A DNA stretch of 64,000 nt from a virus (Duplodnaviria; Caudoviricetes): the IMG/VR virus record IMGVR_UViG_3300014204_000110; one strand, written 5' to 3'. Below, piece after piece: positions 49,155-57,408 of the stretch. Every line of letters begins with the position of its first letter. Position 1 is the stretch's first letter. The notes under the pieces were generated by a model, which had not been told where the DNA came from, ran no database searches, and worked only from the letters and a program-made list of their open reading frames with translations. A program made the position numbers and the translations under genes.

Positions 49155-51908
49155 ATGCCTATAGCTAGAGAAATAAATCTACCCTCTCCTGCTACATATG
49201 TCCAAGATTATGGTCTCAATGTTTCTCCTACTCCTACTCAACGAAATAAAAAAGTCGTTGTTATTGGTACAGCTGAAGATGGTCCAATGTATGAACCTAT
49301 TCAGATTGAAAAACCAGAGGATGCAGAATATGTCTGGGGAAGACTTGGTGCTGGTGATCTTGTTCGTGGTGTCTTCGAATGTTGGGATGTTCAAGGCGGT
49401 CATCCTACTGTTGTAGGAGTTCGTATTGGAAATGGTGAAGAAGCCTCTTTAGATATCGAAGAATCCACAGGTAGTGGATCAGATACTGAACTTGGTGGTA
49501 ATGCCACATCTTTAAAATTAGAAGCTCTTTTTCCTGGAGCAATATATAATCAGATTAGTGTAAGCTATGATGAAAATAGAGATGTTGCAATATATAATCC
49601 TAAAACTGGAGTTACTTCTACTTTTTCAGTTGATACAGAACGACCAACTAATCCTAACGTAGATGCACATAATGTAGCCGAGTTAGTAGACGCAATAAAT
49701 GCAGATCCTAATTTAAATAGTATTTTAAAAGCGACATATTCTGGAATATTAACAGATTATGAAGTATGTATTAGTGGAAATAGTACTGGTGTAAATAATA
49801 CTTCTACTTATGTTGAAGTAAGTTTACCTGATTTAATCAGTAATAGTTATATTACTACTTCTGGTTATATGATTCCTAATCCAATTCATGGAGTAGTTTC
49901 AGCTGGAAATGATATTATAAATGTTGAAGCAATTGAAGCTGTAAGTATTTCTGAATGGGAACAGATACAGTGTGCTGGTAAAACTACTAACAAATTAGCA
50001 TATATGCCATTGGATGGTAAAGCACCAGCTCGATGGAATACAATACAATCATTATATGATTATAATAGTGATTCAGAATATATTCAAGATCCTTCTGGTA
50101 ATATAGTTTCTGAGTATATATATAATCTTAATAGTGCTCTTATGGATGGTGGTACTGGAGAAGGTGGACCTACTAGATCTGGTGGTTACTTTGTTACTGG
50201 ACTTCCTACTAATACTATTCGAGTCACCGTTCCTCTTTGTATTGCAGATAATGAAGAACTCGTAAATAGTGGTGTTGCGGATGCTTATATTAATAGTTTA
50301 ATTACATCTACTTATGCATCATATTCTGGTGTTGGACATAGATATGCAACTTGTTCTGGAATTGCTACTAAATTAGTAGAAGGTGTTGCAGTTCGACCTT
50401 CTGGTAAAATTCAGATTCAGGCTGCAATGTCAGATGATCCAAATGATTTCTGGCAGACTCTTCCATATGATGGAATATCTGGTATTTATTTATCAAGTTA
50501 TTCAGCGGGTGTAGCAGTATTTTCAATTGGAGCAAATGCTTATGCAGATAGTCCTATTATGCAAACACTTGTATCATCTGGAAATATTATACGACCTGAT
50601 GTATATCTTAGAATAACTGCTAATACTGTAAAAGGATTTTTGAATGAGAAAGAAAACTTAAATGCTTTATCAAGTGCTTCTACTCTCACAGATTATTTTG
50701 TTAGAGGACAGGAAATAGTATTTAATACTCCTCCTTCTTTTAATGTTACAGTAAATTATGGAACTAGGATTGAATATGAACTTGGAAGCAATGTTACATT
50801 AAGTGATGCTGCTAATGGTAAATTTGTATTTGATGACGCAGAGCTATTGCCTGGTCCAGGAGGTGGTCCTTTATCTAATACAACAAAATCATATTTACGA
50901 TTTAGATATACTTATTTACCAACGTGGCCTAATATAACTACTGCTGCTAAAGCAATGTCTGGTGGAAGTAATGGAACTAATCTAAATAGTCGTCAGCGTA
51001 AAGAACTATTAACTACATGTTATGATAGACTCCGAAATTATGGAGCTGATCTATGGGTCCCAATGAGTGCGTTTATAGATGAATTAAGTGAACGATTTAA
51101 TCCAATTACTGGTCTTAAGGAAACAATTCCTACAGACTATATAACTGACATTAATGACTTTCTAGAAGATCTATCTATAAATAATATTCAACCACATGCT
51201 ATACTTGGTGTTAAACCAATGGATGACGTTAATCAGGCTAATAAAGATCTATGGGTAAAACGACTTACAGAACGTGATCTTAAAGATCCTAATCGAGGTG
51301 CTAATATTATGGCTTTGGTTGGAAGTAAGTTTATTTCTGTATCCGCTTTTGAACCTGTATTTCTAAATATTGGTAGAGGTCGACCATATGTAGCAAATGG
51401 ACAAGCTGCTTATGCAGGTATGCTTGCTTCAATGCCATATGATATATCTCCAACTAATAAATCTATTACTGGACTTCAAGGTCTTAGATTTTCATTGTCA
51501 ACATCTCAATATGAAGCTCTTAATAGTTCTAGATATGTTACTATGAGAACAAAACCTGGACGTGATCCAGTTGTTGTAGAAGATGTTACTGCTGCACCAG
51601 TTGGAAGCGATTTCGTAAACTGGTCAACTTATAGTATCACTGCTGAAGCTGCTAATAGAGTATATGCAATTGCAGAAACCTTTATTGGTAGACCAAATAG
51701 TGTAGAAGTAAGAACATCTCTAGAACAGTTAATCTCTAATACTCTTATGAGTATGGCTGGTTTACGAGGATTCGATTTCTCCATAAATAGTACTCCGAAT
51801 CAACAGGTTCTTGGTATTATCGAGGTCGATCTTATAATTGTTCCGATTTTTAGTATTAAAAAAATTAGAACAACTGTTAAATTGCGTAAAAACTTACCAA
51901 GTAGATAA
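49155..51908 (+). CDS. Tail sheath protein
   Basis: VVIGTAEDGPMYEP N-terminus; AYAGMLAS..SPTNK, FIGRPN, LIIVPIFSIKKI C-terminus. Confidence 0.9.
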   Translation: MPIAREINLPSPATYVQDYGLNVSPTPTQRNKKVVVIGTAEDGPMYEPIQIEKPEDAEYVWGRLGAGDLVRGVFECWDVQGGHPTVVGVRIGNGEEASLDIEESTGSGSDTELGGNATSLKLEALFPGAIYNQISVSYDENRDVAIYNPKTGVTSTFSVDTERPTNPNVDAHNVAELVDAINADPNLNSILKATYSGILTDYEVCISGNSTGVNNTSTYVEVSLPDLISNSYITTSGYMIPNPIHGVVSAGNDIINVEAIEAVSISEWEQIQCAGKTTNKLAYMPLDGKAPARWNTIQSLYDYNSDSEYIQDPSGNIVSEYIYNLNSALMDGGTGEGGPTRSGGYFVTGLPTNTIRVTVPLCIADNEELVNSGVADAYINSLITSTYASYSGVGHRYATCSGIATKLVEGVAVRPSGKIQIQAAMSDDPNDFWQTLPYDGISGIYLSSYSAGVAVFSIGANAYADSPIMQTLVSSGNIIRPDVYLRITANTVKGFLNEKENLNALSSASTLTDYFVRGQEIVFNTPPSFNVTVNYGTRIEYELGSNVTLSDAANGKFVFDDAELLPGPGGGPLSNTTKSYLRFRYTYLPTWPNITTAAKAMSGGSNGTNLNSRQRKELLTTCYDRLRNYGADLWVPMSAFIDELSERFNPITGLKETIPTDYITDINDFLEDLSINNIQPHAILGVKPMDDVNQANKDLWVKRLTERDLKDPNRGANIMALVGSKFISVSAFEPVFLNIGRGRPYVANGQAAYAGMLASMPYDISPTNKSITGLQGLRFSLSTSQYEALNSSRYVTMRTKPGRDPVVVEDVTAAPVGSDFVNWSTYSITAEAANRVYAIAETFIGRPNSVEVRTSLEQLISNTLMSMAGLRGFDFSINSTPNQQVLGIIEVDLIIVPIFSIKKIRTTVKLRKNLPSR

Positions 51909-51994: not shown

Positions 51995-52474
51995 ATGAGT
52001 TCAAAAACTTGTAAAACATGTAATATTGAAAAAGATGAATCGGAATATTATAAATATAAAAATACATATTGTCGAAGAGATCATTCGTATAAAGAATGTA
52101 AAAAATGTTATAATCTTAGAGTTAAAAAATATTGTGAAAATAATAAAGAAAAAAAAAGAAAATCCAGTAAAATATGGTGGGAAAATAATAAAACTAGTAG
52201 AAATATAATACGTAAAGAACAACGTTTAAAACGAAATTATGATTTATCTTTAATTGATAGAGAAAATATTTTAAAAGAACAAGATTATAAATGTAAAAGT
52301 TGTAATACTGATTTAAAAAATTTAATATCTTATCATATACATATTGATCATGATCATACTACAAATGTTATTCGTGGAATATTATGTAGAGGATGTAATA
52401 TTGCTTTAGGTTTATTAAATGATGACCCAGATAAAATATTAAAATTATATAATTATTTAAAACCCTTTAAATAA
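51995..52474 (+). CDS. Free-standing endonuclease VII-type HNH (putative homing endonuclease)
   Basis: CKTC...CKKC N-terminus; CKSC...HIDHDH...RGILCRGCN..LG...D. Confidence 0.88.
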   Translation: MSSKTCKTCNIEKDESEYYKYKNTYCRRDHSYKECKKCYNLRVKKYCENNKEKKRKSSKIWWENNKTSRNIIRKEQRLKRNYDLSLIDRENILKEQDYKCKSCNTDLKNLISYHIHIDHDHTTNVIRGILCRGCNIALGLLNDDPDKILKLYNYLKPFK

Positions 52475-52508: not shown

Positions 52509-52540
52509 AGAAAGGGGGTTAAAATCCCCTTTCTAGTTTT
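52509..52540 (+). terminator. Hairpin between the HNH gene and the tube gene
   Basis: AGAAAGGGG...CCCCTTTCT followed by AGTTTT. Confidence 0.55.
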
Positions 52541-52559
52541 AACAATAAGGAGGTAATTT

Positions 52560-54396
52560 ATGGGCGCAAGTCCTGCTAATTACCAGAATACTGAAAGCGC
52601 AGTTGATGGTATTAAATCCACTTATAACGCTTCGGCAGGAACAGATATCGTCGCTACCATTGACGGTATCTTAATTGGAAATTTGAATGGTATAAGTTTC
52701 AGTACAACCCGTGAATAGCTTGCGGCCTTATATAGTAATATATATTGAATAACGCCATTAATTGCTGGAACATCCTTATAGGACAATCAGCAGCTACTTA
52801 ATTGTAGTTCAACGACTATCCCGAAAGGGAGTAGAGTTTAGTAAACTCGAAACATGGCGGTTCTTTGAAAGAACGTGATATAGTCTGAACTTACTGGTAA
52901 CAGTAAGAGAATGTATGGAAACGATACATTCGTAACATATTTGGAGAAAGCTCCGATTTATACACTGGGTAAATAACACTGCCCACTTTTAGAGTAATCT
53001 AATTGTAAAAACATTGGGTGAATTCGGTGAAGGTCTGAAAAGAATAATACCGAGCCAAGACCTTGGTACACTAAGGTAAGGTGTAGAGACTACTGGAGAG
53101 ATATAGTTCTCTTAATAACCAGTCCAGCGCCCAACATCCTTATAGGATGAAGAGATAGTCCAAAATAAAGAGTGTAGATGCCGTTTCATTCGGCAGAGGT
53201 AAGCGTAAGCAACATTGCGCTTGTAAAATTCTGTAAATTGCTGGGATAACCTTATAGGTCAATCAGCAGCCAAGCTTAAGTAGAAATACTTTTGAAGGTT
53301 CAGAGACTATTCCGAAAGGAAGTAGGGTCTAAGTAGACTCGAAAGACAGAATAGTTAGAAATAACTAATGATATAGTCCGATCTTTATGGTAACATAAAG
53401 AGAATATATGGAAACGATATATTCGTAACACAAATGGGTCATGCTGGTTCGTTAATCTCAAAGTAAAAGGGATCGTATGTTAGTAATAACATATTGCAAC
53501 TCGTCAAATTGCTGGAATCTCCTTAGAGTCTTAAATACTTAGAAATAAGTGACAATTTTAAGAATTGGACAATCAGCAACTAAATTCATAAGTAATTATG
53601 ATAAATGCTCAGAGACTAAATGGCGAGATCCTCTATCTAGAGGAATAAGATATAGTCCAGACTACAACCGAAAGGGCTTGAGAAATCAAGAGTAGTAAAG
53701 TTACGAACTTTGATAGACATGCATTATATGATATAATGCAAGGTACATTTCAGGACAGTAATGCAGGACCTGCAGATAGGTATAAATATTATGCTAAAAC
53801 TACAGATATTCCTGCTGGTGGACGAAGTTTACTTTTAGGTAAACAACATCTTGACGCATTAGGAGCACTTGGTTCACAAAAATCAATTGCAAACTATAGC
53901 GATCAACTTCCACCAATGACTATCACTTTAACTTCAATGAATGAGTATGGAAATGTTAGTGCAATGCACATACTTGGAGTTGAATTGATTAATGAGGGTT
54001 CTGGTGTGTCAATTGATGATATTGTGACAGAAACGCAGATGAACGGTTGTCTGCCTCAGTAGTAATACTGATGATAAAACATCACCATATGCGGGAATAA
54101 CCTTAGAGTCTTAAGTACCAAAGTGTAACAATCTTAAGAATTGGTCAATCCGCAGGAAAGACTCGAAAGAGAATCCTCAGAGACTTTATGTGATGCTCCT
54201 ACTTGTAGGATGAAGATAAAGTCCGATCTTAATAGAAATATTAAGCTAACACATTTGGACGTTTGTAGCTCGTGGTATTATCGGTTGGAAACCAATCTCT
54301 CAGAATGGTGGAAATGTGAATATTAAAGCAGATGTACTTGCTCAGATGAATAATCTTACAGCAGTACAACAGGCTCAATACAACGGGCTCAATTAG
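52560..54396 (+). CDS. Tail tube protein (238 aa) split by five group I introns; exons 52560-52712, 52944-52970, 53171-53206, 53437-53458, 53701-54040, 54258-54396
   Basis: AGGAGG RBS; joined exons total 717 nt in frame: ...SFSTTR|EKAPIYTLG|SVDAVSFGRGKR|GHAGSLIF|TNFDRHAL...DQLPP...ETQM|TFVARGI..., collinear with the paralogue at 54464 (THRRKAPVDVIG...GSMIFIVFDR...DQLPP...MSYIARDI); directly downstream of the sheath. Confidence 0.92.
52713..52943 (+). ncRNA. Group I intron 1 (231 nt, no ORF)
   Basis: 5' splice site after U with P1 CCGU/GCGG; AATTGCTGG / AATCAGCAG; P7 GACTA / TAGTC; terminal G. Confidence 0.9.
52971..53170 (+). ncRNA. Group I intron 2 (200 nt, no ORF)
   Basis: P1 UGGGU/GCCCA; P10 ACACU with AGUGU; P7 GAGACTA / GATAGTCC; terminal G. 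Confidence 0.9.
53207..53436 (+). ncRNA. Group I intron 3 (230 nt, no ORF)
   Basis: P1 AAGCGU/GCGCUU; AATTGCTGG / AATCAGCAGCC; TTCAGAGACTA / GATATAGTCC; terminal G. Confidence 0.9.
53459..53700 (+). ncRNA. Group I intron 4 (242 nt, no ORF; splits a Phe codon T|TT)
   Basis: P1 AUCU/GGAU; P10 GUAA with UUAC; CTCAGAGACTA / GATATAGTCC; terminal G. Confidence 0.88.
54041..54257 (+). ncRNA. Group I intron 5 (217 nt, no ORF; splits a Met codon AT|G)
   Basis: P1 GCAGAU/GUCUGC; ATGCGGG / AATCCGCAG; CTCAGAGACTT / GATAAAGTCC; terminal G. Confidence 0.88.
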
Positions 54397-54429: not shown

Positions 54430-54450
54430 GGAGGGTTCATGTAACCCTCC
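54430..54450 (+). terminator. Hairpin after the tail tube gene
   Basis: GGAGGGTT-CATGT-AACCCTCC. Confidence 0.5.
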
Positions 54451-54463
54451 TTATACTATCTAT

Positions 54464-55498
54464 ATGGCAACGTTTTTCGATAAAATTAAAAATAATATAT
54501 TTACTCAAGTAGAGGAAAATGTCTCTGCTAATAGTCAGCCATATTTGGGTGGATCGCTTGGTCCAGCAGAAGTTAATCCATTTGCTGAAGATCCAGTAGT
54601 AGATTTTTCTAAGAGTAATACATCATATAGTGGTAGTGATTGTACTGTTATGGTACAATTGAATAATAAACTTATTGTCTTAGGTAATCTAGAGACATTC
54701 TCACATTCTACGCATCGACGAAAAGCACCAGTAGACGTAATTGGACGATCTCACGCAAAAGGTTTTGTTAGTGGAAGTCGTGTTGTAGCAGGAAGTATGA
54801 TATTTATTGTATTTGATAGATCTCCATTGTATGATGTTGTTAAAGAAATTAATTACGTTAGAAATGCTTCTGATAGACGTACATCACCATTACCTGATCA
54901 ACTTCCACCATTAGATTTAATATTACTATTTCATAATGAATATGGACATAGAAGTTTAACTAGAGTCTATGGGGTAGAATTTGTTGATGAGGGTCAGGTT
55001 CATAGTATTAATGATCTTTATACGGAATGTACAATGAGTTACATTGCTCGTGATATTGATCAGATGATTGCTTATGATGAACTTAGTGATTTTAAAAATA
55101 TGTTATTTGAACGTCAGGTTCGAGGACAATTTGTAGATAATAAATTTACTGGATTACTTGAATATAAAGCAAGAGTTGAAAGAGAACTTTCTGATTGTGA
55201 AAAAGTAATTTCTGGTATTGATATGGAAACAGATAGACGTGCTGTTGCTGGAGTTTTTACATTAAGTGCTTCATATTGGTTATCTAGACTATCTTATGGA
55301 AAAGATTATGTAACACGCGAAGAACTTAATAAAGAAAAAACAAAACAACTTAAAATAAAAGAATATCTACTTACTGAACTTGAAAAGATTAATCAACAAG
55401 TTAGAATTTATGAACAGAACGTTAATGTTGGTTTTAATGCTCAACACACTGATGCTGGTAATGTACAATTTGATTACTTATCTCATGCGAGTAAATAA
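54464..55498 (+). CDS. Tail tube paralogue (tube initiator/baseplate-proximal) with coiled-coil extension
   Basis: SYSGSD...RKAP...GSMIF.VFDR...DQLPP...NEYG...GVEF..EG...YIARD. Confidence 0.75.
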   Translation: MATFFDKIKNNIFTQVEENVSANSQPYLGGSLGPAEVNPFAEDPVVDFSKSNTSYSGSDCTVMVQLNNKLIVLGNLETFSHSTHRRKAPVDVIGRSHAKGFVSGSRVVAGSMIFIVFDRSPLYDVVKEINYVRNASDRRTSPLPDQLPPLDLILLFHNEYGHRSLTRVYGVEFVDEGQVHSINDLYTECTMSYIARDIDQMIAYDELSDFKNMLFERQVRGQFVDNKFTGLLEYKARVERELSDCEKVISGIDMETDRRAVAGVFTLSASYWLSRLSYGKDYVTREELNKEKTKQLKIKEYLLTELEKINQQVRIYEQNVNVGFNAQHTDAGNVQFDYLSHASK

Positions 55499-57408
55499 TG
55501 TGGCCATTTAAAAAATCCGAAAATGATATACTTCAACAGGATTTAAAATCTAAAGAAAATAATATAAAACTTCAACAGAATGCAAGTTTTATAGGAAGTT
55601 CTAATGATCCTTTTTCTACTCCTACACGAGATAATTATCAAACTTATCCTTATGATTATTATTCATCCTCTGATTGTAAAATATTTCTAGGAGATATCTG
55701 GTGTGATGATATTGTTTCAATACAATATAATTGTTCTCAATCTAAAACTCCAATATATGGATATGCTTCACAAAACTTTGATGCTATAGCTAAAGGTCAG
55801 ATACTTGTACAAGGAACATTAGCAATCGCATTTAAAGAAGTTGGGTATTTAAATGTTATTCAAGCAACGTTAGAAGCTCAACGAAGAAATTCATCTGAAG
55901 TAATATCAAGTAAAATTAAATCTTATCAAACTGAAGCAAAAGATGGAACTGCTAAATTTATACCAAGACTTAATACAATTGGAGAACAATCAGTAGATTC
56001 TCAAGTATCTTTTCAGTATTCTCCAAATGGAAGTCCTCAGATAATAAGACAACAACAAACTATTGAACAGATATTAACAAGTAAAAAAGGTAATATTGCT
56101 AGTTCTGGAGTTGCTAAAGAACTTGGATTAGGCCCAAGTGATAATAGAGATTTTGAAGATTTTGCTGAAGTACTTGAAGATAGTATCTGGGGTGATAGTA
56201 ATGGACAAGCAATTAATCTTGTAGATAAACTTAAAAGAGTCGATGAATTTGATTATAATTCAAATGGTGGTATTACTACTGCTAAAGGTAGACAGTATTC
56301 TGATGTTTTAAATATTATGCTTACGTTTGGTGACATTAATGATTATCGAGCTGAACATACAATGATTGTTATAAATGATGTTCATTTTACATCTAGTTCA
56401 CTTATTGTTAACACTGATGGAAATCCTATATTTGAAGAATATACTTTTATAGCTAGAGATATTAATGATAGCATCACTGGTAAGTCTATAAACGTTTCTC
56501 CTATTAAACTTAATGTTGGAATTGATAATTTAAAACTGTCTACATTAGAAAACGTTAATGAAATTGAAAAGTTTTTAAATGAAAGAGATTCAAATAGTCA
56601 GGTAACAATTAATTTCTTATCTGCTTATAATGGCACTTGGAATGTTTATAATGGTCAGATTATTGCTACTTTTATATCTAATAAAACTGAACCTTTTACT
56701 GATCAAGTTTGTAAGTTTGCTGAAAACATTGTTAATGAAATTTATTATCCAGAAATTGTAAATACAAGTTACTCTCAATATATTATAGAACTTGATATGA
56801 CTGATAATAAACTTACAATGATACTTGAACAAGTTACTGCAAATACTCGTAGTTATAGAGTAATATCTCCTACTCGAAGTGGGTTTGCTGCGGTTAATAT
56901 TATTTCTAGAGATGATTTATTTCAAGGATCAAGTCTTCCTGAACCAATACAAGACCGACCAATATCTAATACACTAACTCAAAAGAAACAAGCAAGTATA
57001 AATGAAAGTACTAAAGTTAAAGAAGTTCAAGTAACATCATCGTATGATATAGAACGTCCATTTCAAGAAGATAGATTAAATATAATTAATGCTAATTTAA
57101 AAGAAACTAGATTTGATAGTGTAGCAGGATCACAGGTTTCTGATGATATTAAAGCTAGACTAGGTGATCAGGATGCAAGACTTAGACAACAAAATAAAGA
57201 ATCTGATCTTGAAAAACAACGTAGAGTTTCACAAGAAATGCAAGATGAACGAAATTTAAAATTAGAAATAGATCATCTAGAACAAAAAGTTAATATACAA
57301 TTACCTTGGTATGATGTTATTAATCCTGGTATAATTTCTGAACGAAATAAAGAGAAAAAAGAATTAAAAGAAGCTAAATTAAAATATTATAAAGATATTG
57401 GAAATTAA
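55498..57408 (+). CDS. Second tube-fold-containing tail/baseplate protein
   Basis: YYSSSD...SKTPIYGY...VQGTL...EEYTFIARD. Confidence 0.65.
   Translation: MWPFKKSENDILQQDLKSKENNIKLQQNASFIGSSNDPFSTPTRDNYQTYPYDYYSSSDCKIFLGDIWCDDIVSIQYNCSQSKTPIYGYASQNFDAIAKGQILVQGTLAIAFKEVGYLNVIQATLEAQRRNSSEVISSKIKSYQTEAKDGTAKFIPRLNTIGEQSVDSQVSFQYSPNGSPQIIRQQQTIEQILTSKKGNIASSGVAKELGLGPSDNRDFEDFAEVLEDSIWGDSNGQAINLVDKLKRVDEFDYNSNGGITTAKGRQYSDVLNIMLTFGDINDYRAEHTMIVINDVHFTSSSLIVNTDGNPIFEEYTFIARDINDSITGKSINVSPIKLNVGIDNLKLSTLENVNEIEKFLNERDSNSQVTINFLSAYNGTWNVYNGQIIATFISNKTEPFTDQVCKFAENIVNEIYYPEIVNTSYSQYIIELDMTDNKLTMILEQVTANTRSYRVISPTRSGFAAVNIISRDDLFQGSSLPEPIQDRPISNTLTQKKQASINESTKVKEVQVTSSYDIERPFQEDRLNIINANLKETRFDSVAGSQVSDDIKARLGDQDARLRQQNKESDLEKQRRVSQEMQDERNLKLEIDHLEQKVNIQLPWYDVINPGIISERNKEKKELKEAKLKYYKDIGN

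Follow-up and report, generated by a model that had tools for sequence, protein, structure and literature searches.

Three self-splicing group I introns interrupt orf142 of the Staphylococcus phage Twort, which encodes the tail tube protein TmpA (Landthaler & Shub 1999, as related in PMC10136302 and PMC11878797); exon skipping has been reported for orf142, which later proved to be a tail tube gene (PMC10136302, PMC11878797). Genes of Bastillevirinae contain up to three introns each (PMC11878797), and in a Zeta-group crAss-like phage, the major capsid protein (MCP) gene occurs in five fragments (PMC7886860). The jumbo gut ('Jug') phages carry, on average, 18.5 small (~206 nucleotides (nt)) group I introns without open reading frames (ORFs) per genome, and 37 of 76 such predictions were confirmed by metatranscriptome reads (PMC12880540). 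Here we describe a gene in a 64,000-nt stretch of DNA (hereafter, the window) from the Caudoviricetes record IMGVR_UViG_3300014204_000110. This gene, at positions 52560–54396 and predicted to encode the tail tube protein, appears to be split by five ORF-less group I introns, three of its exons being only 22–36 nt long. Overall, the best explanation of the data is that a tail tube gene is interrupted by five independent ORF-less group I introns, best read as the residue of repeated homing into this gene; to this account as a whole we assign a probability of about 0.88.

Searching the window with RF00028 (Intron_gpI), the Rfam model used here as the group I test (gathering score 50 bits), produced five full-length matches above the gathering score, all on the + strand within 52690–54245 and with whole-window E-values from 1e-12 to 4e-20. 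These matches, at 52690–52907 (60.2 bits), 52961–53170 (59.9 bits), 53175–53400 (80.3 bits), 53440–53680 (84.7 bits), and 54031–54245 (72.4 bits), correspond to introns 1–5, respectively, and a permissive Rfam scan (E<=1) of the 64-kilobase (kb) window detected no further match. Group I introns are far above chance in the window and are restricted to one gene. When the introns, which total 1120 of 1837 nt (61% of the gene), are removed, exons of 153, 27, 36, 22, 340, and 139 nt are joined into 717 nt, that is, 238 codons and a TAG stop (Table 1). Conventional ORF calling in this region shows only fragments, of 52 amino acids (aa) from 52560 and 108 aa from 53736. The predicted introns themselves encode no endonuclease, the largest ORF within them being 48 aa long (61 aa if extended into exon 6).

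Table 1. Predicted features of the split tube gene, neighboring features of the window, and insertions in the tube genes of related loci (positions for the latter refer to the spliced gene unless a locus is given)
Feature	Position	Strand	Details
Tube ribosome-binding site AAGGAGG	52547..52553	+	6 nt ahead of ATG; read from sequence
Tube exon 1	52560..52712	+	153 nt, codons 1-51
Intron 1	52713..52943	+	231 nt; site between R51 and E52
Micro-exon 2	52944..52970	+	27 nt, EKAPIYTLG; same as the uninterrupted L009 sequence; fits family-invariant residues
Intron 2	52971..53170	+	200 nt; site between G60 and S61
Micro-exon 3	53171..53206	+	36 nt, SVDAVSFGRGKR
Intron 3	53207..53436	+	230 nt; site between R72 and G73
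Micro-exon 4	53437..53458	+	22 nt, GHAGSL and first base of I79
Intron 4	53459..53700	+	242 nt; phase 1 in codon I79
Exon 5	53701..54040	+	340 nt; protein 61-86% identical to 15 IMG/VR relatives
Intron 5	54041..54257	+	217 nt; phase 2 in codon M193
Exon 6	54258..54396	+	139 nt including TAG stop
Tail sheath gene	49155..51908	+	917 aa; PHROG tail sheath families 1e-39 and 3e-25; weak Pfam Phage_sheath_1
Free-standing Endonuclease VII / HNH-type nuclease gene	51995..52474	+	159 aa; Pfam PF02945 3e-18; PHROG endonuclease VII 3e-25
Tube paralogue 2	54464..55498	+	344 aa, uninterrupted; aligned; PHROG 9206 2e-29
Tube paralogue 3	55498..57408	+	636 aa, uninterrupted; aligned; PHROG matches
L004 insertion	238/239 = intron-4 site		198-nt ORF-less orthologue of intron 4, 69% identical, 66.7 bits
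L004 and L047 insertion	210/211, between G70 and K71, 6 nt upstream of intron 3		~890-nt homologous introns
L003 insertion	578/579 = intron-5 site		869 nt, LAGLIDADG ORF; last 47 nt 89% identical to intron 5
L003 insertion	~162/163, between A54 and P55 (L003:2806-3922)		~1.1 kb, LAGLIDADG
L054 insertion	intron-2 site (L054:2455-3482 approx.)		intron-2 guide sequence, P9 hairpin, LAGLIDADG_2 ORF 1e-33
L054 second insertion	near DQ(I/L)PP motif

The signals at the boundaries are consistent across the five introns. Each has a P1 helix of 4–8 base pairs (bp) that is closed by the splice-site U of the upstream exon wobble-paired with G, the P1 guide sequence starting 9–12 nt inside the intron. The pairings are CCGU/GCGG in intron 1, UGGGU/GCCCA (5 bp) in intron 2, GUAAGCGU/GCGCUUGU (8 bp with U.G) in intron 3, AUCU/GGAU in intron 4, and GCAGAU/GUCUGC (6 bp) in intron 5. 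A P10 pairing with the next exon, of 3–5 bp, is likewise found in all five (GAG/CUU in intron 1 and 5 bp in intron 2), abutting the P1 guide in four introns and located 3 nt off in intron 4. All introns end in G, and their core helices (P3–P8, P4–P6, and P7) can be aligned together with the GAUAUAGUC-type J8/7-P7 strand. Read in the frame of the upstream exon, introns 1–5 present a stop after 1, 1, 9, 2, and 7 codons, respectively. Two other ways of interpreting a split gene were considered and rejected: inteins are ruled out by stop codons that lie in frame at each of the boundaries and by the shifts in reading frame, and translation of a gene in pieces is ruled out by micro-exons that have no start codons.

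Most of this architecture had already been proposed in an examination of the nucleotide sequence made before any database search (the sequence-only reading): the five ORF-less group I introns, with U.G-closed P1, core pairings, and a terminal G in each; the ten exact splice boundaries with the 27-, 36-, and 22-nt micro-exons; 1120 of 1837 nt in introns; the 238-aa product collinear with two downstream paralogues; and the lack of similar introns elsewhere in the window. The five RF00028 matches, the splice signals in five of five introns, the empty scan at E<=1, and the collinearity with intron-less orthologues bear out each of these proposals.

The DNA assembly appears sound. The samples that contain the phage are from landfill or groundwater. 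All sampled words of the full stretch (100%) are present in two metagenome runs from different studies, and a 117-kb public contig covers 52300–53323 with zero differences. One public contig, from run X1, stops within intron 3, as can be caused by repeats, and might thus be taken as a sign that intron-like repeats were misjoined into the gene. However, given the two runs from different studies, the identical 117-kb contig, mutual identities of no more than 74% among the introns, and the exact restoration of the frame at each site, we consider an assembly artefact extremely improbable.

Evidence for the exon–intron structure also comes from relatives in which the gene is intact. Scans of IMG/VR anchored on exon 5 yielded 15 distinct relatives, 61–86% identical in that exon (related loci are denoted by L-numbers), and in 13 of these the tube gene is uninterrupted. 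All frequencies given here come from the exon-5-anchored scans because a scan of metagenomes with peptide patterns crossing intron sites 3 and 4 is biased to intron-less alleles. Against uninterrupted orthologues on more than 50 related phage contigs, the predicted 238-aa protein aligns with no indel, at the junctions or elsewhere; it is 83% identical to the product of the intron-less gene of L005 over 228 residues, and throughout micro-exon 2 and the sequence on either side of it, the uninterrupted gene of L009 encodes the same residues as the window. The micro-exons specify the longest stretch of residues that are invariant in the family. The spliced protein is also collinear with both downstream paralogues and with distant uninterrupted homologues in the Bacillus jumbo phages WH1 and KLEB27-3, which are annotated as virion structural or tail tube proteins.

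The ratio of nonsynonymous to synonymous substitution rates (dN/dS) in the joined frame is ~0.10 in comparisons with L015 and L013, with dS saturated, which indicates that the spliced frame is what purifying selection maintains. These observations bear on the possibility that the gene is decaying, with paralogues 2 and 3 supplying the tube. The presence of two tube paralogues downstream and the minimal form of intron 2 could be taken to favor such decay, but all exons, including those of 22–36 nt, retain the invariant residues and the frame, dN/dS is ~0.1, the ten splice signals are canonical, and the three-paralogue layout is conserved in relatives with an intact first copy. A pseudogene is accordingly a very improbable interpretation.

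The assignment of the gene to the tail tube relies on structural modeling and synteny. A profile search recovered 2931 representative homologue clusters, Pfam searches yielded no match for the intron-less orthologues, and sequence searches of the PDB with the family profiles gave no match. An AlphaFold2 model of the intron-less orthologue from L005, built from a 93-sequence alignment, has a pLDDT (predicted local distance difference test) score of 81.9 and displays the tube fold, a beta-sandwich with a long beta-hairpin. The Foldseek comparison of this model with the PDB returned 70 matches with E<=1e-3, with tail-tube proteins on top; the best match is the tube of phage 812 (E 1.4e-7, target template modeling (TM) score 0.74), and further tube matches include diffocin, PVC, AFP, lambda V, and T4. 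PHROG 9206, which spans the tube protein and its paralogues, is labeled 'major head protein', and ORF140 of phage 0305phi8-36 has the same label in RefSeq; we judge the PHROG label to be wrong because both the fold and the synteny point to a tail tube. By the orthologue model, then, the gene is a tail tube gene, as the sequence-only reading had it. The L005 model places the sites of the first four introns along the long beta-hairpin: its first strand is interrupted by intron 1, its tip by intron 2, and its return strand by both intron 3 and intron 4. Intron 5 maps to a conserved C-terminal strand.

The five introns are not copies of one another; on sequence comparison, they represent at least three lineages, namely, introns 1 and 3, intron 2, and introns 4 and 5. 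Introns 1 and 3, which show the highest identity among the five (74% over 196 nt), share P7.1/P7.2, an insert of 32–33 nt after the P7 5' strand that forms two hairpins (IA-like). Intron 2 has one composite insert in this region, and introns 4 and 5 have none. Intron 2 is also compact, with the P9 positions deleted in the RF00028 alignment and a spacer of only ~9 nt separating the terminal G from the 3' strand of P7. What introns 4 and 5 have in common is limited to a P5 extension of 69 nt, 78% identical (53520–53590 and 54100–54165), which is absent from the L004 orthologue of intron 4 (L004:3801-3998); this distribution suggests that two introns within one gene have exchanged a peripheral module. 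As for similarity beyond the gene, intron 3 and an intron interrupting the MCP gene of the crAss-like phage cr128_1 are 70.8% identical, and sequences similar to intron 5 occur in Acinetobacter phages and WH1.

No near-identical DNA was found in GenBank phages, the sole exact match being 32 nt in an intron core. This segment of intron 1 (52803–52834, from P7 to P7.2) is 100% identical in Escherichia and Salmonella phage genomes of ~146–151 kb and is also identical in records labeled Campylobacter phage; its carriers are presumably introns of the same lineage. A further property of the sister introns 1 and 3 is that exons 2 and 3 (63 nt) would be dropped in frame if the 5' splice site of the former were joined to the 3' splice site of the latter. 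Such skipping would remove 21 invariant residues and parallels the exon skipping of Twort orf142.

Although most relatives have no intron in the tube gene, some carry insertions at the same or neighboring sites (Table 1). The orthologue of intron 4 in L004 is, like the introns of the window, ORF-less, but the introns at 210/211 in L004 and L047 each contain a LAGLIDADG ORF and form a perfect P1 of 6 bp. Rfam missed the introns with endonuclease ORFs in L003, L047, and L054, which were recognized by their boundaries, guide sequences, and similarity of the 3' core. The L003 insertion between A54 and P55 could be removed without a frameshift only from a 5' exon that has G, instead of U, as its last base; this insertion has a group I-like P7 strand at its 3' end, and no Rfam core was found in it. 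Given that the L054 intron at the site of intron 2 keeps the P9 hairpin and a LAGLIDADG_2 ORF, intron 2 of the window looks like a trimmed derivative.

Altogether, insertions occupy eight sites in the tube gene family, and six of these sites fall in an 85-nt segment (spliced nt 153–238). Three complete or near-complete related genomes (213–230 kb) have zero or one Rfam-detectable group I intron, and that one is in the tube gene. Variable occupancy, endonuclease-bearing and endonuclease-free versions at one site, and the choice of the most conserved target together point to a homing cycle of selfish introns. The five introns of the window are best read as the accumulated endonuclease-free survivors of repeated homing events that targeted the most conserved region of the gene.

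Under this reading, the succession of invasions that we infer would have left introns in the long beta-hairpin and one C-terminal strand, with the window copies having lost, or never possessed, an endonuclease ORF while relatives keep LAGLIDADG versions at the same or adjacent sites. An occupied site would probably no longer be cut by the matching endonuclease. After transcription, each intron would fold into a group I core and take up free guanosine; cleavage would occur directly after the last U of the exon, which forms the U.G wobble of P1, P10 would align the next exon, and ligation of the exons would free the intron at its terminal G. All five splicing events would be needed to obtain the reading frame, and translation of unspliced RNA would end 1–9 codons into each intron.

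This dependence is what makes regulation conceivable, as the sequence-only reading had suggested for tail production: five slow or condition-dependent splicing steps could gate or time the synthesis of the tube, given that any tube protein requires all five splicings, and the similar introns 1 and 3 permit the in-frame skipping of exons 2 and 3 in the manner of the exon skipping of Twort orf142 (PMC10136302, PMC11878797). However, the same protein is produced from an uninterrupted gene in 13 of the 15 relatives from the unbiased scan, so that there is no evident regulatory need, and variable occupancy with endonuclease-bearing versions is the prediction of selfish spread. We therefore regard adaptive regulation as improbable, and repeated homing as the preferred account.

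How introns that encode no endonuclease would persist and move might be explained by the nuclease gene next to the tube gene. Collaborative homing involves an ORF-less intron with a neighboring free-standing endonuclease, as in the case of the cyanophage psbA intron and F-CphI. The window also has ORF-less introns beside a free-standing nuclease gene; this gene, which encodes a His-Me finger protein, precedes the tube gene by 85 nt. In this scheme, which is compatible with repeated homing, the Endonuclease VII/HNH nuclease would mobilize the introns in trans by cutting intron-less alleles of co-infecting relatives, with repair copying the nuclease gene along with the intron array, and the persistence of introns without endonucleases would be explained. 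The sporadic presence of the nuclease gene (the window and L015 only, of ~60 relatives) and its G+C content of 20%, versus 29.6% for the window, are as for a mobile nuclease. Nevertheless, in L015, the nuclease gene (45% identical, same position) adjoins an intron-less tube gene, so the linkage is not strict; in L003 and L004, introns are present and the nuclease gene is missing. The present case differs from the described ones in that the association between nuclease and introns is not conserved among the relatives of the window, and the targeting of the tube gene by the nuclease is a conjecture. On balance, we deem collaborative homing rather unlikely here.

A related idea concerns the benefit of multiple occupancy. 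The proposal of the sequence-only reading that introns shield a conserved target gains indirect support from the LAGLIDADG introns that relatives carry at the same and neighboring sites. Tentatively, and with more doubt than confidence, the 85-nt hairpin segment, with its six insertion sites in a small number of genomes, could be seen as a contested target of many homing endonucleases in circulation among co-infecting jumbo phages. The ORF-less stack would then be a multi-site armor in which every intron interrupts one recognition site, perhaps spread as a block by the neighboring nuclease. If this holds, the phage would gain immunity to the endonucleases of several competitors at once, at almost no coding cost.

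Several points weigh against the interpretation that we favor. Splicing is predicted from DNA, and no run recorded as RNA contains the locus; two nominal RNA-Seq metagenomes and two DNA runs gave short core matches from other organisms and no predicted junction, a result that is uninformative on expression. Intron 2, without a P9 hairpin and only 10 bits over the threshold, is the least certain of the five with respect to autonomy. About half of the tested Bastillevirinae phage introns spliced in infected cells only and not in vitro (PMC11878797), so that 'self'-splicing here may require helper factors. Finally, the protein modeled to identify the tube was that of an orthologue rather than the spliced product of the window itself, and the Pfam Phage_tube_2 match is weak (3.5e-4) and was obtained for only 5 of the 93 family members.

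Compared with the systems described so far, the closest counterpart is Twort orf142. Its intron positions were taken from the annotated four-part coding sequence, three Rfam hits, and the 23-nt exon. The Twort tube gene, too, directly follows the sheath gene, has a micro-exon (of 23 nt), and contains several ORF-less introns of small size, two of which are nearly identical; its introns are of the IA type, which introns 1 and 3 of the window resemble. The similarity extends to the sequences: over its 3' 138 nt, intron 1 matches intron 2 of Twort orf142 with 72.9% identity (E 6e-6). When introns 1 and 3 are aligned with Twort introns 2 and 3, 20 of the 48 consensus pairs show compensatory double changes, which occur in P3, P4/P5, P7.1, P7.2, P9, and P9.1. 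The best structural match of the orthologue, phage 812, is itself Twort-like. The differences are that the window gene has five introns of at least three lineages, comprising 61% of the gene, versus three introns in Twort; that four of them are grouped in the segment for the beta-hairpin, those of Twort being clustered near the C-terminus; and that the window belongs to a ~200-kb jumbo phage of the 0305phi8-36/WH1 type rather than to Herelleviridae, with splicing predicted here.

The Zeta-group MCP gene is similar in being a major structural gene of an uncultured phage with several group I-type insertions predicted from sequence; it differs in having four insertions, three of them recognized by endonuclease domains, versus five in the much shorter gene of the window, all ORF-less and all recognized by the ribozyme model. 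The Jug phages share with the window the size class of the introns, the lack of ORFs, jumbo hosts, and the splitting of essential genes, but their introns are spread genome-wide (with terL in two to three fragments), in contrast to the window, where all five Rfam-detectable introns are in one 717-nt gene. With Bastillevirinae and other phages whose group I introns bear homing endonucleases, the common ground lies in the relatives, given that L003, L004, L047, and L054 have introns of the same type, with a LAGLIDADG ORF disrupting the ribozyme, at the same or neighboring tube sites; unlike those, the introns of the window encode nothing. No published phage gene with five group I introns was found in our literature search, in which the maxima were three validated and four predicted introns. 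Hence, the sequence-only reading was right that the count is exceptional, at least as the most found published, but it understated the precedent that it drew from Twort: the Twort gene is itself a tube gene, and further cases are on record (PMC7886860, PMC12880540). The five-intron tube gene is an extreme of a known phenomenon, in the same situation as Twort, and not a new kind.

The surroundings of the gene follow a conserved plan. The tube gene is the first after the sheath gene in all relatives, the nuclease gene being wedged between the two in the window, and the order of the sheath gene followed by three tube paralogues is also found in the Bacillus jumbo phages WH1 and KLEB27-3. The paralogues grow in length from the first to the third (238, 344, and 636 aa), and paralogue 3 has large insertions within the tube core and a long charged C-terminal extension. 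GC-rich hairpins lie on both sides of the tube gene; the one at 52512–52532, directly ahead of the tube ribosome-binding site, is terminator-like on the + strand, and the one at 54430–54450 scored as terminator-like on the - strand only.

If the introns are spliced as predicted, the gene would show the densest intron packing that we found for a phage protein-coding gene, with 61% of its length in introns and exons as short as 22–36 nt. Each micro-exon would then have two roles, pairing in P10 with the preceding ribozyme and serving in P1 as the substrate of the following one, and the gene would provide a compact natural test bed for the folding of neighboring ribozymes without interference and for exon skipping. 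The gene is overlooked by gene callers and family databases, appearing as fragments of 52 and 108 aa and under a 'major head protein' PHROG label. For this family of jumbo phages, the finding means that an intron hotspot, with eight sites, is located in a structural gene rather than in a gene of DNA metabolism and presents several stages of the homing cycle side by side.

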